A DNA stretch of 64,000 nucleotides. It comes from an uncultured candidatus Brocadiaceae bacterium. GTDB lineage: Bacteria; Planctomycetota; Brocadiia; SM23-32. The DNA is taken from assembly GCA_964434535.1 (NCBI GenBank), contig CAYSWA010000007.1, positions 8,321 through 72,320 of the forward strand, in the 5' to 3' direction. Position 1 is the first letter of the stretch. Each line of letters begins with the position of its first letter. Both the position numbers and the translations under genes were made by a program. The notes beneath the pieces are model-generated. The model was given only the letters and a program-made list of their open reading frames with translations, did no database searches and was not told the DNA's origin. Below, one piece after another: positions 1,761 through 37,898 of the stretch.

Positions 1761-3140
1761 GTGGCCAGAGAGCGCGTCAGCTACGTCTGCGGCGAGTGCG
1801 AGGCGAGCTTCCCCCGCTGGAGCGGGCGCTGCCCGAACTGCCAGGAGTGGGACACCCTCCAGGAGGTCCGCGAGCGGCCCCAGGGCAAGGGCTCCTTCGG
1901 GAAGCCCGCCGCGCGCGCGGGCGTCGCCGCCACGCCGCTGGCCCAGGTCGAGGCCCGGCGGCTAAGCCGCCTCGGCTCCGACATACCCGAGCTGGACCGG
2001 GTGCTCGGCGGCGGCGTGCTGCCCGGCAGCAGCATCCTGCTCGGGGGCGAGCCGGGCATCGGCAAGTCCACGATCCTGCTCCAGGCGCTCGGCAGGATGG
2101 CCGCGCGCGGGGTGCCGTGCCTCTACGTGAGCTGCGAGGAATCGCTGGGCCAGCTCAAGCTGAGGGCCGAGCGGCTGGGCTTGAAGGACTCGGCGCTGCC
2201 CGTGGCTGCCCAGAGCGACCTGGCGAGCATCCTGGGGCTGATCGCCGCCGGCGAGCTGCGCGTCCTCGTGGTCGACTCGATCCAGCGCGTGCACGCCGCC
2301 GAGCTCGACTCGGCCACCGGCAGCCTGCGGCAGGTGAGCACCTGCGCCACCGGGCTGACCGAGACGTGCAAGGAGCGCGCGATCGCCCTTTTCCTTGTGG
2401 GGCACGTCACCAAGCGCGGGCTGATCGCCGGCCCGCGCGCCCTGGAGCACCTGGTGGACACCGTGCTCTACTTCGAGGGCGAGACGGCCGGCGGCGCGGC
2501 GCTGCGCGTGCTGCGGGCCGTGAAGAACCGCTTCGGCCCGGTCAACGAGATCGGCGTCTTCGAGATGCACAGCGAGGGCCTGCGGGAAGTGAGCAACCCC
2601 AGCGCGCTGTTCCTGGCCGAGCGCGACGCCGACGCCGCCGGCTCCGTGGTCACCGCCACGATGGAGGGCAGCCGCGCGCTGCTGGTCGAGGTGCAGGCGC
2701 TGGTCGGGCCCGGCGCCTACGGCACCCCGGAGCGGAAGGCGAGCGGGATCGACTACCGCCGCTTCAGCATGATGCTCTCGGTGCTGGAGCGCCAGGCGGG
2801 CCTCGAGCTGGGCCGCTGCGACGCCTTCGTGAACGTGGCCGGCGGCGTGCGCGTCTACGAGCCGGCGGCCGACCTGCCGCTGCTTCTCGCGCTGGCCTCC
2901 AGCTTCCGCGAGGCCCCGTTCTTCGCCGACGGCGTGGCCGTAGGCGAGGTCGGCCTCGGAGGGGAGGTGCGCGCCGTCGGCCGCATCGAGGACCGGCTGA
3001 GGGAGGCGCGCAAGCTCGGCTTCGAGCGGGCCGTCGTTCCGGTCGGCAACGCCCCGGCCGCGCGGCGCCTGATGGCCGAGGTCCACGCCGTGCGCAGACT
3101 CACAGACGCACTGAGACTTCTCGGGACGCAAGGCCAGTGA
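1761..3140 (+). CDS. radA: DNA repair protein RadA/Sms
   Basis: YVCGECEASFPRWSGRCPNCQEWDT zinc ribbon, Walker A GEPGIGKST, KNRFG motif, and C-terminal Lon-like domain. GTG at 1761 preceded by GGAGAG. The track ORF start at 1650 is an upstream extension. Confidence 0.85.
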   Translation: MARERVSYVCGECEASFPRWSGRCPNCQEWDTLQEVRERPQGKGSFGKPAARAGVAATPLAQVEARRLSRLGSDIPELDRVLGGGVLPGSSILLGGEPGIGKSTILLQALGRMAARGVPCLYVSCEESLGQLKLRAERLGLKDSALPVAAQSDLASILGLIAAGELRVLVVDSIQRVHAAELDSATGSLRQVSTCATGLTETCKERAIALFLVGHVTKRGLIAGPRALEHLVDTVLYFEGETAGGAALRVLRAVKNRFGPVNEIGVFEMHSEGLREVSNPSALFLAERDADAAGSVVTATMEGSRALLVEVQALVGPGAYGTPERKASGIDYRRFSMMLSVLERQAGLELGRCDAFVNVAGGVRVYEPAADLPLLLALASSFREAPFFADGVAVGEVGLGGEVRAVGRIEDRLREARKLGFERAVVPVGNAPAARRLMAEVHAVRRLTDALRLLGTQGQ

Positions 3141-28576: not shown

Positions 28577-29386
28577 ATGATCGAACGCACGATCGGCTTC
28601 ATCGGCACCGGCACGATGGCCACGGCGCTCGCCGGGGGCATGCTCAATGCCGGCGTCGCCGCGCAGGAACGCATCCTCGGCGCCGACCCTGACCCCGTGC
28701 GCCGCGAGGGGTTCGCCGGCCTGGGGGCGACCGTCTTCGACGACAACCGGCTGCTGCTCCAGCGCTGCGAGGCCGTGGTGCTGAGCGTCAAGCCGAACGT
28801 CGTGCCCGCCGTTGCGCGGGAGATCGCGCCTTACGTCACGGAGCAGATGCTGGTCGTCTCGATCGCCGCCGGGGTCACGCTCGGCGCGCTGGAGAAGATG
28901 CTCGGCACCGAGCGGCTGGTGCGCGTCATGCCCAACACGCCGGCGCGGGTGGGGCAGGGCGCCTCGGCTTACTGCACCGGCGAGGGCGCGACGGACGAGG
29001 ACGCCGCGCTCGTGCAGCAGATGCTCGGCTCGGTCGGCCTCTGCGTCCGCGTGAAGGAGGAGCAGATGGACGCCGTCACGGGGCTGAGCGGCAGCGGGCC
29101 GGCCTACCTCTACCTGGTGATCGAGGCGCTGGCCGACGGCGGGGTCAAGCTCGGGATGCCGCGCGACATCGCCCTGCGGCTGGCGGCGCAGACGGCGAGG
29201 GGCGCGGCGCAGATGGTGCTGGAGACCGGCAGCCCGCCGGCGCAGCTGCGCGAGCAGGTCACCACCCCCGGCGGAACGACGCTCGAGGGACTCGGCGTGC
29301 TGGAGGAGGCGGGCATGCATCGGGCGTTCGTCGAGGCGGTGGAGGCGGCGGCGCGCAAGTCGGCGCGGCTCTCGAAGCAGGACTGA
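28577..29386 (+). CDS. proC: pyrroline-5-carboxylate reductase
   Basis: IGFIGTGTMATAL Rossmann motif...VMPNTPA...GSGPAY...TPGGTT, the canonical ProC motifs. Confidence 0.85.
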   Translation: MIERTIGFIGTGTMATALAGGMLNAGVAAQERILGADPDPVRREGFAGLGATVFDDNRLLLQRCEAVVLSVKPNVVPAVAREIAPYVTEQMLVVSIAAGVTLGALEKMLGTERLVRVMPNTPARVGQGASAYCTGEGATDEDAALVQQMLGSVGLCVRVKEEQMDAVTGLSGSGPAYLYLVIEALADGGVKLGMPRDIALRLAAQTARGAAQMVLETGSPPAQLREQVTTPGGTTLEGLGVLEEAGMHRAFVEAVEAAARKSARLSKQD

Positions 29387-29408
29387 TCCCCCGCTGTGGG
29401 GCGCTGCC

Positions 29409-29906
29409 TCAGGGCCGGAAGTCGCTCTGCTTGACCTCGTCCATCAGGACGACGGCGTGCACCTCGATCGCCTGGCCCTTGCCGACGGCGCCGAGTCCCT
29501 CGGCGGTGCGGGCCTTGACGCTGACGCTCTCCAGCGGCACGGACAGGATGGCGGCCAGTTGCGCGCACATGCCCTTCTTCATGCCGCTGAGGCGGGGTCG
29601 CTCGGCGATGACGTTCACGTCGACGTTGGCCACGGCGAGCCCGCGCTCGCGCGCCGCCAGCAGGGCGGCCTTCGAGAGGATGCGGGCGCTGTCGGCGTCC
29701 TTCCACTCGTCGGAATCGTCGGGGAAGTGCTCGCCGATGTCGCCCAGGCCAGCGGCGCCGAGGATGGCGTCGGCCACGGCGTGCAGGACGGGGTCGGCGT
29801 CGCTGTGGCCGGTCAGCGCCGGCAGGCCGGGGAACTTGACCCCCCCGAGCACCAGCTCGCCGGCCGTGCCGAACCTGTGCACGTCGTAGCCGATCCCGAC
29901 ACGCAT
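29409..29906 (-). CDS. ispF: 2-C-methyl-D-erythritol 2,4-cyclodiphosphate synthase
   Basis: MRVGIGYDVHRF...GHSDADPVLHA...DIG. ATG 29906 with GGGAGG upstream. Confidence 0.85.
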   Translation of the reverse strand: MRVGIGYDVHRFGTAGELVLGGVKFPGLPALTGHSDADPVLHAVADAILGAAGLGDIGEHFPDDSDEWKDADSARILSKAALLAARERGLAVANVDVNVIAERPRLSGMKKGMCAQLAAILSVPLESVSVKARTAEGLGAVGKGQAIEVHAVVLMDEVKQSDFRP

Positions 29907-30041
29907 TGAGCGGCCTCCCTGCTCGCCACGCCGCATTCTACCGAGCGGGCGAGGCCCAACACAAGGCGGCCCTCCCGCTCCGTGGCGCGACGGGCTCCGC
30001 AGGGCTTAGAATGGTCCGGATCGGCACTTCGAGGATCCCCC

Positions 30042-32762
30042 ATGCCCGACGCACAAGCCGGCCCGCCATCGACCGGGCGCTCCGACGAGGAGCTGTGGGA
30101 GCGGTTCGTCGGCGGCGACGCCGCCGCGCTCGCCGAGCTGAGAGCCCGCCACACGGGCCCGCTCTACCGCTACCTGCTGCTGAGCACCGGCCGCCCCGAC
30201 GAGGCCGGCCGGCACGTGGTCGGCACGTGGAGCCTGCTGGCCTGCTACCGGGAGCGCTTCCAGGGCTTCGCCTCGTTCCGCGCCTGGCTCTACGCCGTGG
30301 CCACCCAGAGGTGGATGCCGCCGACGCACCCCGAGCAGTTCGGCCTGACCGACCTGATGGACGATCTGCGCCGCGGCCGGCCGAGCTCGCGCGAGGGACG
30401 CATCTTCTTCCGCGTCAACGACATGCATCGCTCCGTGCGGCAGCCGTTCCTGCTGGAGGCGCTGGCGGGCCTCGGGCCCGACGAGATCGCCGCCGCCTGC
30501 CGCTTCACGCCCGAGCGCGTCCGCAAGGCTCTCGCGACGGCCTACCGGCGCCTCGCCCGCAGCGGGCTCTTCGGCCCGGGCGAGGGGGCGGACGCGGAGT
30601 CGCGCGCGGCCATCGCCGAGCAGGTCCGGCAGGCCGCCGACGTCTCGCTGCCGGAAGAGATGGCGGAGCTCGTCGAGCGCGGGGTGGCGGAGGCGACTGA
30701 GAGCGGGGAGGTGCTCCGCACTGCCCCGGCCGATTGGAGGCCCGAGCGTTCGGGCCGGCAGCGGGCGGCCCTCGTGGTGGCGTCCATCGTCCTGTTCGTG
30801 GTCGGGTCGGCCGGGCTTCTCGCTCTGCTGGGAGGCCGGGGGGAGCCCGTGCCGCCGGTCGCCGAAGCGGCCTCTCTATCAGGCCGCGCCGAGGTGCGGC
30901 CCCCGGGCGTCAGCGTGTGGCGCGAGATGGGCCGGCGGGAGTCCCTGCCGCCCGGCGCGCAGGTGCGCACCGGGCCGCAGGCCTACCTGGTGCTGCGGGG
31001 GGAGGGGGTCGAGTGGTGGCTGCCGCCCGTCACGGTCGTGGCGCTGCCCGAGCCCCGGACGGCTGAGCTGCTGGCAGGGAGGCTGTATGCGCGCGTGGAA
31101 ACCGGCGAAGCCCCGGGACGCGTGACCTCCGAGAACGGAAGCGTGGCCTGCCCGGAGGGGGAGTTCGTCGCCCGGGTGACCTCCCGGCGCTTCATCGCCG
31201 GCTGCGTGGGCGGAGACGCGGCTGTCGAGGCGGGCGAGGCGAGCGCGCAGCTCGGCCCCGGGGAGCTGACCATGGCCACCCGGGGCGAGCATGTCGGGCC
31301 GGTGCGGCCCGTCCGCCCCGCGCAGCTCACGCACTGGCTGGGTGAGTTCGCGCGCTACGAGGGGCGCCACATCGAGCCGCGGCAGCTCGCCGGCGTGCCC
31401 CTCGCGCCCGCGGCGCCCGCGCTGCCGCGCGGCGTGCGCATGGAGCGGCTCGCGCTGGAGCTCACCGTGCGCGGCCCCCTTGCGCTCGTCGAAGTGCGGG
31501 CGGCGCTGAGCAACGAAGGCGATGCGCAGTGGCAGGGGACGCTGGACCTCGGCGCGGCCGTCCTTCCCCCGCCCCTGGCGATCACCTCGGACGGGCCGCT
31601 TCGGCTGGCGCCCGGCGAGGGGGGCGAGGCCCGGCTGGCCGGGCTCTGCCTCATGCGCGACCGGCGCGGGCACTACGCCCTCGGCATCGACCCGGGCGCC
31701 TGGAGCGGCGGGACAATCGGCCGTCTGGACGTGCAGGTGAGCTCTGACGCGCAGGGCGGCATCGGCCGCTTCGCCTGCCCCACGCTCGGGGCGCGCTTGA
31801 GGCCGCGGGGGGCGCTGGACTGGACGGCGCGGCGCCGGGATTTCGCTGCGGAGACGCCGCTCGTCTTCGAGTTCGAGTTCGGCAAACCCGAGGGCATCGC
31901 GTGCCTGACGGGCTCCACCGACGGCGCGCGGGCGGCCCTGGTCGCCTGGCGGCCTCCCGCCGTGAAGCAGGAGTGGATCGCGAAGGAGCGCAACGTCTTC
32001 ATCGCTTTCGACGCCACGGCCGACTTCGGCCCGGGCGGCCGTTTCGCTGCCCAGGAGGCGCTGGAGGGCCTGATCCAGGCGCTGCCGCCGGGCTGCTCGA
32101 CGGCCTTGCTCGCCTACGACGGCCGGCTGCGGCTTGACCCCGACCGCCTGGCGCTGCACCATCCCGACCGGGTGGAGTCGATGCTCTCCGGGCTCTGGCA
32201 GCTCCAGGTGGAGGGCGCGGAGGAGGAGGCCGCGCCCGGCGCCTTCCTGGCGGCCGCCGTCGAGCTGGCCGTGGGGGCCGAAGGGGAGGGGTTGCTCGTG
32301 TTCGTCACCGGGCGCGAGGCGCCCGTGGAGCTGCCGGAGGCCAGGCCGGACGGCGGCCTGCGCGTCTGCGTCATCCAGGTCGGCGCGGAGGCGCCCGCCG
32401 CGGCGTATGCGGCCCTGTGTGCGGGCACGGGCGGCGTGGCGCTGGCCGTGCCGCCGACGGCGGCGCCGGACCTGGCCGTGATCGACTTCCTGGTGAACCT
32501 GGACGTGGCGGCGCTGCGCGAGGTCGCGCTCGATGCGCCGGGCGCCGGCGCGGCGGCCGTGCTGCGGGGGGAGGCGCGCTTCAGCAGCCAGCCGGTTGTC
32601 GGGCTGCTCGCCCTGCCGGGGGCGGGGGGTTCGGTGGCCGGCCGCTTTCGGGCGCGCGCCGGGGGACGCGCATTGGAGCGGCACTTCGCCCTCGAAGCGA
32701 CGCCGGTCGACTCCCTGCCGCCCGCGCTCGTCCGGGTGCTGGGGCAGCGCCACCTGCGGTGA
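30042..32762 (+). CDS. fusion protein: ECF sigma-70 factor + transmembrane FecR-like anti-sigma domain + C-terminal vWA-like domain
   Basis: Sigma region 2 (LYRYLLLSTGRPDEAGRHVVGTWSLLACYRERFQGFASFRAWLYAVA) and region 4 HTH (PDEIAAACRFTPERVRKALATAYRRL). One TM helix (LVVASIVLFVVGSAGLLALL). FecR-like block (SVWREMGRRESLPPGAQVRTGPQAYLVLRGEGVEWW). vWA-like VFIAFDATADFGPGG near the C-terminus. A TAGAAT -10 lies at 30007-30012. Confidence 0.7.
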   Translation: MPDAQAGPPSTGRSDEELWERFVGGDAAALAELRARHTGPLYRYLLLSTGRPDEAGRHVVGTWSLLACYRERFQGFASFRAWLYAVATQRWMPPTHPEQFGLTDLMDDLRRGRPSSREGRIFFRVNDMHRSVRQPFLLEALAGLGPDEIAAACRFTPERVRKALATAYRRLARSGLFGPGEGADAESRAAIAEQVRQAADVSLPEEMAELVERGVAEATESGEVLRTAPADWRPERSGRQRAALVVASIVLFVVGSAGLLALLGGRGEPVPPVAEAASLSGRAEVRPPGVSVWREMGRRESLPPGAQVRTGPQAYLVLRGEGVEWWLPPVTVVALPEPRTAELLAGRLYARVETGEAPGRVTSENGSVACPEGEFVARVTSRRFIAGCVGGDAAVEAGEASAQLGPGELTMATRGEHVGPVRPVRPAQLTHWLGEFARYEGRHIEPRQLAGVPLAPAAPALPRGVRMERLALELTVRGPLALVEVRAALSNEGDAQWQGTLDLGAAVLPPPLAITSDGPLRLAPGEGGEARLAGLCLMRDRRGHYALGIDPGAWSGGTIGRLDVQVSSDAQGGIGRFACPTLGARLRPRGALDWTARRRDFAAETPLVFEFEFGKPEGIACLTGSTDGARAALVAWRPPAVKQEWIAKERNVFIAFDATADFGPGGRFAAQEALEGLIQALPPGCSTALLAYDGRLRLDPDRLALHHPDRVESMLSGLWQLQVEGAEEEAAPGAFLAAAVELAVGAEGEGLLVFVTGREAPVELPEARPDGGLRVCVIQVGAEAPAAAYAALCAGTGGVALAVPPTAAPDLAVIDFLVNLDVAALREVALDAPGAGAAAVLRGEARFSSQPVVGLLALPGAGGSVAGRFRARAGGRALERHFALEATPVDSLPPALVRVLGQRHLR

Positions 32763-32784
32763 GGCCGCGCGTCGTGCGTTCCGC

Positions 32785-32812
32785 TTGACGCGGCTCGGGG
32801 TTCGTGTAGAAT
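32785..32812 (+). promoter_or_regulatory. strong sigma-70-like promoter TTGACG-N16-TAGAAT
   Basis: TTGACG 32785-32790, TAGAAT 32807-32812. It lies 58 nt upstream of the ATG at 32870. Confidence 0.5.
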
Positions 32813-32834
32813 GGAACTGACTGGTCAGTTCCAT
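32811..32834. promoter_or_regulatory. perfect 24-bp palindrome ATGGAACTGAC-TG-GTCAGTTCCAT (putative operator)
   Basis: 11-bp arms with a 2-bp spacer, overlapping the -10/+1 region of the preceding promoter. This is typical operator placement for a dimeric repressor. Confidence 0.5.
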
Positions 32835-32869
32835 GCGGGGGCACGCAACCGGTTTCCGAAGGCAAGTGG

Positions 32870-33781
32870 ATGGCATCCCTGATAGAGAGAAGCAATCCTG
32901 CGCCCGAGCCGCCGTACGCTGAGGTGCGCGGCGAGGGCTCGGACAACGCGCTGAGGGAGCTCCAGCACGAGCCCCCGGAGGAGCTCGCCCGCATCATCGC
33001 CGAGCGCCTGGAGCCGGGGGAGCGGCTGATCCTGTCCTTCCCGGTGGACATGAACCTGCTGGGCCGCTACGCGCAGGAATGGCTCATCCTCACCGATCGG
33101 CGCTGCTACGTCTACGAGGGGCTGGACTCGGGCTACGAGCTGCGGCTGCCCGAGCGGAAGGTCTGCCCCACGTGCGGTCGGATCATCCGCCCCCGTATCG
33201 GCACCTGCCTCGCCTGCATGAGCAAGCGGCGGATACTGCTGCGGCTGCTGCGGTTCGTGCGGCCGCACGCCGGCCTGATGGCGGTGGCGCTCTGCCTGCT
33301 GCTGGTGGCGACGGCGATCAGCATGGCGCCGCCCCTGATCTCGAAGGCGGTCTTCAACCTGGCGATCGTGCCGACGGCGGGGGAGGCGGCGGCGCCGGCG
33401 GAGAACTTCTGGTACCGGTTCGCCGAGCCGGAGTCGGTCGAGCTCCTGCTGGTGCTTGGCGGCGCGCTCCTGCTGGCGTTCGCCGTGCCTGCGGTGCTGG
33501 ACGGGGTGCGCCAGTTCGTGATGGGGCGGGTCGGCATGCACGTGGTGGTGGACCTGAGCAACACCGCTTTCTCGCACATGATGCGCCTGAGCCTTTCGTT
33601 CTACCATCGCGAGCAGACCGACCGTGGCCCGCGCCGCATCGAGCTGAAGAGCAGCCACGACGCCGACCGCCTGCCCGGCGGGCGCATCTACGTGCGCGAC
33701 GCCGAGGGGAACGCCTACCTGATCCCCGACTACCGCGCGTTGGACCCCGCCAGCCGCGACATGATCGACCTGTTCATGTAG
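32870..33781 (+). CDS. membrane protein with N-terminal zinc-ribbon/PH-like domain and ABC-exporter-type TMD fragment (truncated; possible pseudogene/remnant)
   Basis: CPTCGRIIRPRIGTCLAC zinc ribbon. RILLRLLRFVRPHAGLMAVALCLLLVATAISMAPPLISKAVFN and FSHMMRLSLSFYHREQT match TM1-3 of ABC exporter TMDs. The ORF stops after about 3 helices and no NBD follows in any frame. Confidence 0.4.
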   Translation: MASLIERSNPAPEPPYAEVRGEGSDNALRELQHEPPEELARIIAERLEPGERLILSFPVDMNLLGRYAQEWLILTDRRCYVYEGLDSGYELRLPERKVCPTCGRIIRPRIGTCLACMSKRRILLRLLRFVRPHAGLMAVALCLLLVATAISMAPPLISKAVFNLAIVPTAGEAAAPAENFWYRFAEPESVELLLVLGGALLLAFAVPAVLDGVRQFVMGRVGMHVVVDLSNTAFSHMMRLSLSFYHREQTDRGPRRIELKSSHDADRLPGGRIYVRDAEGNAYLIPDYRALDPASRDMIDLFM

Positions 33782-33878
33782 CCGCTGCGGGCGCCTCGCC
33801 GGTGACACGGGCCGGGCGTTCTGGTACAATGTTTGGCGAGGCGCGCGTGCGCCCTTTGCAGGGCTCCTGGAGCGGCCG

Positions 33879-34874
33879 ATGCTGGGTTGGAGAGACATTC
33901 TCCTCCTCTCGATGCTGTTGCTCGGCGCGGCGGTCGTGATCGCCGGCGGTGCGGGGGCGATGGAGGTCTGGACGCCGCAGGCCGGAGAGGTGGAGCTGGA
34001 GGAGATGCCGCGCGACGACGTGGAGTCCCGCCGTCGGCACGCGATCGCCCTGATCGGCGCCGGGCAGTGGGCGGGCGGCATGGCCGAGCTGCGGGGCCTG
34101 CTGAAGGATCATCCTGACGCTTCGTGGGTGCCGGAGGCCCGCATGGCCCTGGCCCGCGGCTGGCTGGCGCAGCAGAAGCCACGGAAGGCGTTCGAGGAGC
34201 TGGCCGGGCTGCTGGCCGAGTGGCCGGAGACGGAGCTGAGGCCGCATGCGCGGGCCGCGCAGTTCACATGCGCACGCATGGCCGGCCAGGAGGATGTGGG
34301 GCGCGGCGTCGCCCTCTACGAGCGGATCATCGAGACGTCGCAGGACCGCGACGAGGCGGCGCTCGCGCAGGTCAGGATGGCCGACCTTCTCTTCGAGGCG
34401 CGACGTTACCTGGACGCGGAGACGGAGTACCTGGCGCTGGTCAGCTTCTACCCGGACAGCGAGTGGGTGCCTTACGCCTGGTATCGCGCCGCCGCGTGCC
34501 AGAAGGGCCTGGCCGAGTGGCTGGAGCTGGGGCTGGAGAACGTGGAGACGGCCGAGGCACACCTGAGGGACTACCTGCAGCGCTACCCGGGGCACGCGCA
34601 GTCCGACCAGGCGCGCCAGGCGCTAAAGGAGGTGCGGCGGCGCGAGGCGGAGCTGAACCTGGAGATCGCCCGCTTCTACGCCGAGGCGGAGGGCCGCCCC
34701 TGGGCGGCGGTTTGTTACCTGGAGCACGTCGTGGAACGGTTCCCGGGCACTCCCGAGGCCGACGAGGCCGGCGCCGAGCTGGCGCGCATCCGGGGCCGGA
34801 TGCGCGCGCCCCTGCCGGGCGAGGTGAGGGAGTTGAACGTGCCCGGCGTCGTGCGGCAAGGAGCAAGCGAGTGA
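33879..34874 (+). CDS. TPR-repeat outer-membrane lipoprotein, BamD/YfiO-like
   Basis: N-terminal signal/anchor. Multiple TPR-like units (ALARGWLAQQKPRKAFEELAGLLAEWP..., AQFTCARMAGQ..., YLALVSFYPDSEWVPYAWYRAAAC) resemble BamD. Confidence 0.6.
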   Translation: MLGWRDILLLSMLLLGAAVVIAGGAGAMEVWTPQAGEVELEEMPRDDVESRRRHAIALIGAGQWAGGMAELRGLLKDHPDASWVPEARMALARGWLAQQKPRKAFEELAGLLAEWPETELRPHARAAQFTCARMAGQEDVGRGVALYERIIETSQDRDEAALAQVRMADLLFEARRYLDAETEYLALVSFYPDSEWVPYAWYRAAACQKGLAEWLELGLENVETAEAHLRDYLQRYPGHAQSDQARQALKEVRRREAELNLEIARFYAEAEGRPWAAVCYLEHVVERFPGTPEADEAGAELARIRGRMRAPLPGEVRELNVPGVVRQGASE

Positions 34875-35365
34875 GAAGCGCACGGGTCACGAAGGCGATC
34901 GGCGCCGTGCTGGCGCTGGCGGCCCTGGCGGGCTGCTTCGGTTACCGGGCCGAGAGCCTGTTCCGCCCGGACATACGGACCGTCTACGTGGAGGCGTTCG
35001 ACAACGGGACGTTCCGGCGCGGGCTGGAGGTGCCGCTTACGCGGGCGGTGGCGGACGAGATCCGCCTGCGCACGCCGCTGGTGCTGGCGCCGCGCGAGGA
35101 GGCCGACAGCGTGCTCAGCGGCGAGCTGGTCGAGTTCAGCGAGAGCACGCAGGTCAAGACGGAGGACGACCGGATACTGCTGAACCGGGTGACGGCCGAG
35201 GTCCGCTTCCGCTGGCGCGACCGCTTGACCGGGCGGGACATCGTGCCCGAGCAGACCGTCCAGGAATCGGTGCGCATCGCCGAGTCGCTGGAGGAGACGT
35301 TGTTCGGGCTCGTTTTTGAGGAGACGGCTCAACGCATCGTCGAACGGATGCAGGAGCCCTGGTGA
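34871..35365 (+). CDS. lipoprotein (LptE-like)
   Basis: GTG 34871 overlaps the upstream stop (GTGA). Lipobox LALAALAGC followed by an LptE-like pattern (TVYVEAFDN...LVLAPREEADSVLSGEL). Confidence 0.5.
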   Translation: MRSARVTKAIGAVLALAALAGCFGYRAESLFRPDIRTVYVEAFDNGTFRRGLEVPLTRAVADEIRLRTPLVLAPREEADSVLSGELVEFSESTQVKTEDDRILLNRVTAEVRFRWRDRLTGRDIVPEQTVQESVRIAESLEETLFGLVFEETAQRIVERMQEPW

Positions 35366-35371
35366 CGGACA

Positions 35372-37402
35372 ATGGCGAGAGACGACGAGAGGCGCAGGAT
35401 GCGCGAGGCGGGGCCCGAGGAGCCCTTTGACGACGACGGCCCGCAGCGTCCCCGCGTGGGGCGGCAGTTGCTGATATGGGCCGTCTTCATCGGGGCCGTG
35501 CTGGTGGCCTTCTTCCTGTATCAGCGCATGAAGCACTCGACCGAGCGGGACATCACCATCGGCGAGCTCCAGGTCCTGATGGCGCAGGGCCGCGTCACGG
35601 AACTGCGCGTCGAGGGGACCAACGCACGCGGCTCGCTGAAGGCCGAGGGCGGGCAGAGCGCGCCGTTTCGCGTGACGCTCAGCGAGGGCTACATCGACGA
35701 TCACCTGGACGAATGGGCGCGCCACCTGCCGAAGGACGCGCTGAGCATCAAGGAGCCGGCCGGGATGGTGCCGATGCTGCTGCTGCAGATGGCGCCGTTC
35801 CTGCTGCTGCTGGTGCTGATGGTCTACTTCTTCAACCGGCAGATGCGCGCGGTCGGCTCGCGCGACGGGTTCTCGCCCTTCCTCGGCTCCAGCACGAACG
35901 CCGCGCGCAAGGAACGGCCGGAGGTGACCTTCAACGACGTGGCGGGCGTCGAGGAGGCCAAGGAGGAGGTGCAGGAGATCGTGGAGTTTCTGAAGAGCCC
36001 CGAGAAGTTCCAGCGCGTCGGCGGGCGCATCCCCCGCGGCGTGCTGCTGGTCGGGGCGCCGGGCACGGGCAAGACGCTGCTGGCCAAGGCGATCGCCGGC
36101 GAGGCGGACGTGCCGTTCTTCAGCCTCTGCGGCTCGGACTTCGTGGAGCTTTTCGTCGGCGTCGGCGCCTCGCGCGTGCGGGACCTGTTCCGCAAGGCGC
36201 GCCAGAACCAGCCGGCGATCATCTTCCTGGACGAGATCGACGCCGTCGGCCGCAAGCGCGGCACCGGCCTGGGCGGGGGGCACGACGAGCGGGAGCAGAC
36301 GCTCAACGCGATCCTGAGCGAGATGGACGGGTTCAGCCGGGACGAGGGCGTCATCGTGATCGCCGCGACGAACCGGCCGGACGTGCTGGATCCGGCGCTG
36401 CTGCGCCCGGGCCGTTTCGACCGCGAGATCGTGGTGGACATGCCGGACGTGCGGGGCCGGGAGGAGATCCTGAAGGTGCACGCCCGCAAGGTGAACATGG
36501 CGCCGGAGGTGGGCCTGAGCGAGATCGCGCGCGGCTCCCCCGGCTTCACCGGCGCCGACCTGGAGGCGCTGGTCAACGAGGCGGCTATCCAGGCGGCCGT
36601 CAAGGGCCGCGAGGAAGTCCGCCAGGAGGACCTGGAGGAGGCGCGCGACAAGGTGCGCTTCGGCCGCCAGAAGAAGCGCAGCCGTGTGATGAGCGACGAG
36701 GACCGCCGCATGACGGCCTATCACGAGGCCGGCCACGCCCTGGTGGCGAAGCTGCACGAGGACGTGGAGCCGCTGCATAAGGTGACGATCATCCCGCGCG
36801 GCGTCGCCCTGGGCATGACCATGGTGCTACCGGAGAAGGACAAGTACGGCATGCGCATGCGGGAATGCCTCGGGGCGATCACGATGAACATGGCGGGGCG
36901 CGTCTCGGAGGAGATGTTCTGCGGCGACATATCTTCCGGCGCCGAGAACGACATCCGCGCCGCCACCAACCTGGCCCGCAAGATGGTCACCCAGTGGGGC
37001 ATGAGCGAGGCCCTGGGGCCGATCAGCTACAGCGACGACGAGCAGCACGTCTTCCTCGGCAACGAGATCACCAAGGCCAAGCAGCACAGCGAGCGCATGG
37101 CCGAGCAGATCGACCAGGAGATCTGCGACATCCTCATGCGCTGCTACGAGGCGGCCAAGAGCACCTGCAAGGAGCACTCGGCCGAGCTCCAGGCCGTGGC
37201 CGAGGTGCTGCTGGAGCTGGAGACGCTGACCGGCGAGGACGTGGACTGGATCTTCGAAGGCGCGACCGTCGAACAACTGGTGGCCGCCCGCCGCGAGAGC
37301 GAGCGCGAGAAGGAGCGCGCCGAGGCCGAGCGCAAGCAGCGGCGGGAGCGCACCGATGAGTCGCCCGGCGGCTACCCCGCCCCGGCCGGCAGCCCGGCCT
37401 GA
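35372..37402 (+). CDS. ftsH: ATP-dependent zinc metalloprotease FtsH
   Basis: Walker [12 protein letters not shown] second region of homology, HEAGH zinc motif, two N-terminal TM helices. Confidence 0.9.
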
Positions 37403-37454
37403 GCGCGCAGTCAGAGCGATCCTCCTCGCGTCCATCCGCGGAGCCTCCCCACCC

Positions 37455-37898
37455 ATGAGCGGCGACCGAACAGCGGCCTCGAACAAGAAGATCGCCCCGT
37501 GGTACGCCGGGGGGCTGCGCTTCACCTGCGCGCGCTGCGGGCGCTGCTGCGGCGGGGCGCCGGGCTACGTCTGGGTGGAGCAGGCCGAGATCGCGCCCAT
37601 GGCGGCCCACCTGGCGATGGAGACGCGCGAGTTCAGGAAGCGGTTCTGCCGCAACGTCTGGTGGCGCGTGAGCCTGCGGGAGCGGCCGAACGGCGACTGC
37701 GTGATGCTGACACCCGGCGGGTGCAGCGTCTACGAGGCGCGGCCCGCCCAGTGCCGCACGTTCCCCTTCTGGGCGGACAACGTGCGGAGCGCGGAGGCGT
37801 GGGAGGCGCTCAAGCGGCGCTGCCCCGGCGCCGGGCAGGGCCGCCTCTACAGCGCCGAGCAGATCGAGCGGATCGCCGCCAGCGAGGGCGCCGTCTGA
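37455..37898 (+). CDS. YkgJ-family Fe-S/zinc cysteine-cluster protein (CxxCxxCC)
   Basis: FTCARCGRCCGGAPGYVWV...CVMLTPGGCSVYEARPAQCRTFPFW. Confidence 0.7.
   Translation: MSGDRTAASNKKIAPWYAGGLRFTCARCGRCCGGAPGYVWVEQAEIAPMAAHLAMETREFRKRFCRNVWWRVSLRERPNGDCVMLTPGGCSVYEARPAQCRTFPFWADNVRSAEAWEALKRRCPGAGQGRLYSAEQIERIAASEGAV

Follow-up and report, generated by a model that had tools for sequence, protein, structure and literature searches.

TetR-family repressors of efflux operons, of the QacR, AcrR, TtgR and CecR type, bind a palindromic operator that overlaps the promoter. Here we describe a probable operator of this kind in a 64-kb stretch of DNA (64,000 nucleotides, hereafter the window) from contig CAYSWA010000007.1 of an uncultured candidatus Brocadiaceae bacterium, where a 24-bp palindrome lies on the promoter of a 303-amino-acid (aa) open reading frame (ORF). 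The ORF joins parts of two proteins that have been described as a pair, an ABC transporter and a DUF1854 (PF08909) protein. Price et al. (bioRxiv 10.1101/072470) found DUF1854 to be cofit with the adjacent ABC transporter and with two cphA-like genes in two beta-proteobacteria, and proposed that the pair exports an amino-acid polymer. The same paper cites natural full-length ABC-DUF1854 fusions seen by Pfam curators. The corresponding NCBIfam models are named 'cyanophycin metabolism-associated ABC transporter' (NF052233) and 'DUF1854 family protein' (NF052234). We consider it likely that the locus in the window is the remnant of such a two-gene exporter operon, from which approximately 2.0 kb has been lost in two in-frame deletions, standing behind a TetR-type operator.

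The contigs compared with the window were two search matches to the ORF and four loci with full-length ABC orthologues. At loci L001 and L083 the genes stand in the order proC, ispF (on the opposite strand), an ECF-sigma-like gene, a ~750-aa anti-sigma-like gene, a 790-aa ABC exporter gene, a DUF1854 gene of 181–188 aa, bamD/yfiO, lptE, ftsH and a CxxCxxCC gene. Locus L002 repeats this order, in a noisier assembly where the ABC and ftsH genes are each split over several calls and lptE is uncalled. Positions 28577–37898 of the window reproduce exactly the gene order of L001 and L083, with 912 bp where L001 has 2,936 bp. The intact orthologues in L001 match both NCBIfam models over their full length, and their genes are adjacent with a 4-nt overlap, as described for the pair. 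They differ from the described pair in scoring below the equivalog cut-offs (643.8 vs 880 for the transporter and 107 vs 150 for DUF1854) and in their surroundings: none of the four Planctomycetota-like loci with gene tables has a called cphA gene, and the neighbours are bamD, lptE and ftsH where gene order is shared.

BLASTP and tblastn comparisons with the L001 proteins showed what remains of the two genes. Contiguous window DNA carries residues 14–93 of the ABC protein (32909–33148), its residues 161–328 (33137–33640) and residues 134–188 of the DUF1854 protein (33614–33778). The first gap is a deletion of 71 codons (213 bp) relative to the orthologues: all 31 of the orthologues in a MAFFT alignment (771–816 aa, including ~45%-identity relatives from Halanaerobiales-like genomes) have a 71-residue block that is absent from the window. 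The second deletion spans ~1.8 kb and joins ABC codon ~321 (...SFYHRE) in frame to DUF1854 codon ~134 (TDRGPRR...). Parental sites of this junction in L001 read CGC GAG GAG ACG GGC in the ABC gene and GTC GAG ACC GAC CGC in the DUF1854 gene, with GAGAC common to both, and the deletions may have arisen at short repeats of this sort (microhomology). Both junctions are in frame and contain no ambiguous bases. Altogether the coding DNA for ~470 ABC residues and ~133 DUF1854 residues is missing, and only 97 nt separate the stop codon of the ORF from the next (bamD-like) gene. The initial annotation, made from the window alone, had raised the possibility that a sequencing frameshift conceals a full-length exporter. 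This is excluded, since the DNA for the ATPase domain is gone in every frame and the 97-nt gap leaves no place for it. Alignment to full-length homologues, which the same annotation had proposed as a way to find where the gene is cut short, located the truncation points and in addition revealed a second, internal deletion that it had missed.

Domain searches of the ORF agree with this layout. Residues 95–251 match positions 138–287 of the 766 in NF052233 (58.4 bits vs an equivalog cut-off of 880), and the ABC membrane domain PF00664 is matched over positions 2–95 of 274 only (27.3 bits vs a cut-off of 28). Hydropathy places two transmembrane helices at residues ~129–162 and ~187–218, and we take an amphipathic RRILLRLLRF ahead of helix 1 to be a putative elbow helix. 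The initial annotation had counted the first three helices of the exporter; only two are kept, and four of the six helices of a complete membrane domain are gone. It had correctly seen that no nucleotide-binding (ATPase) domain follows: the ORF has no PF00005 match, and tblastn with the L001 ABC protein detected nothing beyond residue 328 at the locus. The tail, which it had described as unrelated sequence, is instead the C-terminal end of a protein that normally has its own gene, the next one along, since residues ~247–303 match PF08909 at positions 75–129 of 130 (E = 1.8e-11, 44.5 bits vs a cut-off of 26.8) and correspond to the last 55 DUF1854 residues. Similarly, residues ~249–303 match positions 97–152 of the 152 in NF052234, with 37.3 bits against a cut-off of 150. 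DUF1854 is thus represented not by a full-length separate gene but by 55 of ~130 positions fused to an ABC fragment, and the window copy retains ~30% of the ABC protein and ~30% of DUF1854. Natural ABC-DUF1854 fusions likewise hold both sequences in a single polypeptide, but they keep a complete transporter and a complete DUF1854, whereas the fusion in the window is the product of an internal 1.8-kb deletion and is without the ATPase domain and four helices. Judged by this domain content, the 303-aa product cannot work as an ABC exporter, since it has none of the ATPase domain, lacks four membrane helices and keeps only the smaller part of DUF1854.

The N-terminal part of the ORF is better understood from its intact relatives. 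When the first 195 residues of an intact orthologue were modelled with AlphaFold (mean predicted local distance difference test score, pLDDT, of 82), the model showed seven strands followed by a helix. The PDB structures that it matches best are PH domains (GRK2, Brag2 and the bacterial DUF1696 structure 3dcx among them); Pfam gave no match for this domain. In modelled fold, the domain of the intact exporter therefore appears to resemble the bacterial PH-like domains (DUF1696, 3dcx). The combination of a PH-like domain with a CxxC...CxxC zinc ribbon is typical of 24 close orthologues (alignment A1). The window copy differs from these domains, as deletion 1 takes part of strand 4, strands 5–7, the C-terminal helix and 12 invariant residues, more than half of the domain. 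A zinc-ribbon N-terminal part had been recognized in the initial annotation, and the CxxC...CxxC motif is indeed present with all four cysteines kept; the PH-like domain it had also named is backed for the family but is incomplete here, with 71 residues gone.

The remaining coding sequence appears to have changed little. Among 26 close orthologues 216 residues are invariant, 36 of these are retained and alignable in the ORF, and 34 of the 36 are unchanged, which fits a recent event with little decay since; we infer that the deletions are recent. A search of 5.8 billion protein clusters returned the 303-aa product itself as the sole full-coverage match, the exact product being recorded from both NCBI and Logan assemblies. 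Other matches in the same search were DUF1854 proteins, 70–75% identical to the tail of the ORF.

The control region, in contrast to the genes behind it, is intact. The promoter reported in the initial annotation, TTGACG-N16-TAGAAT, was confirmed where that annotation had placed it, with a 16-nt spacer and 10 of 12 sigma-70 consensus positions matched in a promoter scan; shuffled versions of the promoter region gave 0.0 sites this good. Confirmed too was the palindrome right at this promoter. Its perfect 11-bp arms enclose a central TG (an 11-2-11 layout), it starts with the two bases that close the −10 box, and it covers the −10 end together with the predicted transcription start (~32819–32821). 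Within the 64-kb window it is a single copy even with up to 3 mismatches, and 0 of 100 shuffles gave a match. A putative ribosome-binding site, GAAGG, lies 7 nt ahead of the ATG of the ORF.

An island reading TA[G/C]AAT-[G/A]G[A/T]ACTGACTGGTCAGTTC is found upstream of the ABC gene in the window and in the Planctomycetota-like loci L001, L002, L083, L084 and L085. Its parts TA[G/C]AAT and G[A/T]ACTGACTGGTCAGTTC are invariant at the six loci, with the DNA around it only ~60% identical. At L084 and L085 the neighbouring genes are entirely different and the island is kept nonetheless, which indicates that the control region travels with the operon. The island is absent upstream in one orthologue (L086). 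Among more distant relatives, a profile search of genome contigs with the ABC alignment listed matches of at most 48% identity (Latescibacterota, Poribacteria, Bacillota and others), none of which has the palindrome upstream of the ABC gene. The same contig search, whose listed matches rested mostly on generic ATPase-domain patterns, did not turn up a second intact ABC-DUF1854 copy.

The initial annotation had allowed for the palindrome being unique. It is not: the 18-bp core GAACTGACTGGTCAGTTC has exact matches in at least 120 metagenome stretches of widely differing guanine-cytosine (GC) content. We clustered the ORFs around 85 sites of these stretches and found that the commonest neighbour is a protein of ~200 aa with the helix-turn-helix motif GVGKGTIYRYF, present at 34 of the 85 sites. 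At those 34 sites the start of its gene lies no more than ~150 nt from the motif, in co-directional or divergent orientation. The protein belongs to TetR_N (PF00440, 54 bits), and its matches in the PDB are TetR-family regulators only, all of them weak (E-values no better than 7e-12). The TTGACA, −10 and GAAC layout of the window recurs at several of these TetR loci, and the TetR genes near the core are commonly followed by genes for HlyD-type adaptors and RND or ABC efflux systems. At a second group of ~20 sites the core precedes an operon of an ABC ATPase and a YhgE/Pip-like membrane protein. Positions 1–6 flanking the 18-mer are complementary in 39–58% of sites, compared to 25% expected by chance. 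A profile search showed the TetR subfamily to be abundant, and many of its members go under the names Planctomycetota or Phycisphaerae; for example, the TetR gene of L116 (P0142), which stands behind an identical 18-mer in the same promoter position, bears a Planctomycetes name.

Overall, the palindrome is an inverted repeat on a core promoter, it is kept while its flanks diverge, and the same sequence stands beside TetR genes elsewhere. Since TetR genes adjoin the core and the promoter position is conserved, the palindrome is best read as a TetR operator, very probably that of a widespread TetR subfamily, and we infer that a repressor binds at this site. The window operator, like those of the QacR, AcrR, TtgR and CecR type, is an inverted repeat over the −10 box and the start site. 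As in those systems, the subfamily regulator gene usually lies beside its operator and is presumably autoregulated, with efflux gene neighbours (HlyD-type adaptor, RND, ABC). The subfamily differs from them in matching no curated TetR equivalog above cut-off, the best being Bacillus-type FadR with 54–69 bits against 200, and in a regulator that would act in trans at the ABC-DUF1854 loci. The operator of E. coli CecR (ybiH) was considered as a candidate and rejected: the palindrome upstream of that gene reads TCTTAATCAATCATTTGATTAAGA, and even with up to 3 mismatches allowed the 18-mer is not matched in this region. The operator sequence was not found in the literature searched, and none of the TM1030/TetR papers concerns this operator by title and abstract.

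Some loci with the core stand apart from the common arrangement. L132 has two exact copies of the core (1911–1928 and 2093–2110, minus strand) in the region where one TetR gene starts, at a spacing of 182 bp, which suggests two operators in some loci. Operons of the ABC ATPase/YhgE/Pip-like (ABC-2) type are found at L088, L105, L109, L113, L122, L150, L152, L156 and similar loci, in GC-rich genomes and with a degenerate ATPase. A subgroup of these (for example L109, L113 and L156) has a gene on the other side of the motif that by eye is pyridine-nucleotide-disulfide-oxidoreductase-like. No TetR gene of the profiled subfamily lies within 2 kb of the YhgE/Pip-like loci, and their regulator may be further off or more divergent.

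Taken together, these comparisons suggest the following history. The ancestor would have been an operon of a ~790-aa ABC exporter (PH-like domain, zinc ribbon, six-helix membrane domain and ATPase) and a ~180-aa DUF1854 partner. One deletion would have taken 71 codons inside the PH-like domain, and the other ~1.8 kb from just past transmembrane helix 2 to DUF1854 codon ~134; with both junctions in frame, a single chimeric ORF of 303 aa was left. The intact promoter and the 24-bp palindrome would be the ancestral control region of the operon, on which one or more repressor dimers would occlude RNA polymerase until released by a ligand. The initial annotation had stated that the cognate repressor is not encoded nearby, and this holds for the whole 64-kb window, where tblastn and hidden Markov model searches detected no TetR of the operator-associated subfamily. 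The repressor would thus be supplied from outside the window.

Several points weigh against this reconstruction. Around the intact ABC-DUF1854 operons, too, no TetR of the subfamily is found within 7–8 kb, so that the presumed regulator of these loci must act in trans, and in this clade the link between repressor and operator is made solely through the identity of the operator. That a single genome contains both this TetR gene and the operon is likewise only presumed. The microhomology at the junctions is derived from relatives that are only ~58% identical, and two in-frame junctions would occur by chance in ~1 of 9 cases, which leaves some room for selection on frame. Finally, the window looks like a piece of a metagenome-assembled contig, and a related assembly (L002) has clear frameshift noise in the same gene. 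Nor do the 303-aa ORF and FtsH of the window have an entry in the contig index. The deletions might then be an assembly or binning artefact, or a minority structural variant picked by the assembler, with the operon of the organism intact. We regard this as improbable: the junctions share at most ~5–7 nt with the parental genes, far below assembler k-mers, which makes repeat collapse unlikely; the exact 303-aa product comes from two sources, NCBI and Logan; and the junctions are clean, in frame and free of ambiguous bases.

Slightly less probable still is that the palindrome is bound by a non-TetR regulator in this clade, or that it acts as an RNA or DNA hairpin, either as a terminator of the anti-sigma gene or as a stabilising 5′ stem-loop. 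No TetR gene adjoins any ABC-DUF1854 operon, the palindrome begins 49 nt past the stop codon of the upstream gene, and the non-symmetric central TG is invariant in the six orthologous promoters, all of which would suit such a reading. A terminator is ruled out, as no T-run follows the palindrome and a scan revealed no terminator-like site. A riboswitch or leader RNA is ruled out by an Rfam scan of positions 32500–34000, which gave no match, and by the folding of the 5′ untranslated region that remains, which is no better than shuffled (z = 0.55). The predicted start lies inside the palindrome (the −10 box ends at 32812), so that the left arm would not be transcribed. There is no covariation between the arms, which are invariant, and in L001 a change (GTAC paired with GTTC) stands uncompensated. 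As to another regulator, the identical 18-mer stands in the same promoter position before TetR genes, at least one of which (P0142 of L116) is Planctomycetes-named.

The initial annotation had offered two options, a repressor-controlled decayed gene and a new short membrane protein derived from an ABC exporter; the first is supported, and the second is argued against by the ORF being a singleton and by all 31 aligned relatives being full length. Least probable of the alternatives is that the chimera works as a new small membrane protein under TetR control (PH fragment, zinc ribbon, two helices and DUF1854 tail). Both deletions keep the frame, the promoter, operator and plausible ribosome-binding site are intact and 34 of 36 invariant residues are kept, but retention of these residues is equally expected after a recent deletion, no other protein of this architecture was found among the 5.8 billion clusters, the PH-like domain without part of strand 4, strands 5–7, the helix and 12 invariant residues cannot fold as in its relatives, and only 55 of ~130 DUF1854 positions are left. 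The remnant of a two-gene operon behind a TetR-type operator remains our preferred reading, and the features on which it is built are collected in Table 1.

Table 1. Features of the exporter remnant, its control region and the downstream promoter-like site, in window coordinates.
Feature	Position	Strand	Evidence
−35 hexamer TTGACG	32785..32790	+	Consensus scan; TTGACA or TTGACG at the equivalent position in L001, L002, L083
−10 hexamer TAGAAT	32807..32812	+	Consensus scan; TA[G/C]AAT invariant in six orthologous promoters
24-bp palindrome ATGGAACTGAC-TG-GTCAGTTCCAT, putative TetR-family operator	32811..32834	.	Perfect arms; window-unique; kept in L001, L002, L083, L084, L085
18-bp operator core GAACTGACTGGTCAGTTC	32814..32831	.	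Exact matches in at least 120 metagenome stretches
Chimeric ORF, 303 aa; in-frame fusion of an ABC exporter remnant with the DUF1854 3′ end	32870..33781	+	Pfam, NCBIfam, BLASTP, tblastn, alignment
Residues 1–90: N-terminal leader and first PH-like strands	32870..33139	+	tblastn of L001 ABC 14–93 on 32909–33148; AlphaFold model of the orthologous domain
Deletion 1 junction, codons E90–L93	33137..33148	+	71-residue gap in MAFFT alignment of 31 orthologues; overlap of two tblastn segments
Zinc ribbon CPTC...CLAC (C99, C102, C113, C116)	33164..33217	+	Cysteine columns invariant in orthologues; weak Pfam zinc-ribbon matches
First two transmembrane helices of the exporter membrane domain (residues ~132–162 and ~187–218)	33263..33523	+	PF00664 profile positions 2–95 of 274; hydropathy
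Deletion 2 junction GAG CAG ACC (E248–T250)	33611..33619	+	Codon comparison with L001 genes; tblastn segment ends
DUF1854 C-terminal ~55 codons and stop	33617..33781	+	PF08909 positions 75–129 of 130; 75% identity to L001 DUF1854 134–188
Promoter-like site GTGACA-17-TACAAT, extended −10 TG	33802..33830	+	Promoter scan; upstream of the BamD/YfiO-like gene 33879–34874

Genes on either side of the remnant were also compared. Downstream, the bamD, lptE and ftsH genes have a strong sigma-70-like promoter site of their own, so that they need not depend on the operator-controlled promoter and are probably transcribed independently of it. Upstream, where L083 and L001 each have two separate genes that overlap, positions 29982–32762 (+) form a single ORF of 926 aa: its residues 21–197 match the 191-aa ECF-sigma-like gene of L083 (51% identity) and its residues 205–912 match the 768-aa anti-sigma-like gene of L083 (32% identity). 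This ORF is either a natural sigma/anti-sigma fusion or the result of a small indel, and may be another sign of local rearrangement. Among the related assemblies, the orthologous ABC gene of L002 (8001–10387) is broken by two frameshifts near transmembrane helix 1 and its ftsH is called as a fragment, which we would put down to noise in the assembly, not to biology. Assembly JAWODG01, a Candidatus Brocadiia metagenome-assembled genome, is the source of both L085 and L015, which encode paralogous PH/zinc-ribbon ABC exporters with 62% and 42% identity to the query; the L085 paralogue has the operator, and an exact-pattern scan found no palindrome core anywhere in the L015 locus.

Annotators should mark the ORF as what deletions have left of a gene pair, a pseudogene-like fusion, instead of listing it as a short ABC-like membrane protein. 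The remnant is a case of ordinary gene decay; of wider use is the exact operator of a TetR subfamily that is both widespread and uncharacterised, together with its link to an exporter in one Planctomycetota clade. It is possible, though on present sequence comparisons doubtful, that GAACTGACTGGTCAGTTC and the TetR subfamily form a conserved efflux-control module across genomes of very different GC content, probably of several phyla, which has recruited the bamD/lptE-side PH/zinc-ribbon ABC-DUF1854 exporter in one Planctomycetota clade. In the most extreme version of this idea, the in-frame 303-aa chimera would still be expressed under operator control and have a function of its own. If the module exists, the ABC-DUF1854 exporter would be a ligand-induced envelope or efflux function. 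The sites described here give a first sketch of the targets of the TetR subfamily, namely HlyD/RND/ABC efflux operons, operons of an ABC ATPase with a YhgE/Pip-like protein, and the ABC-DUF1854 operon of a Planctomycetota clade. For the DUF1854-associated exporter, for which the functional evidence in the literature searched consists of only fitness data from two beta-proteobacteria, the operator offers a testable handle on its regulation and possibly on its inducer.

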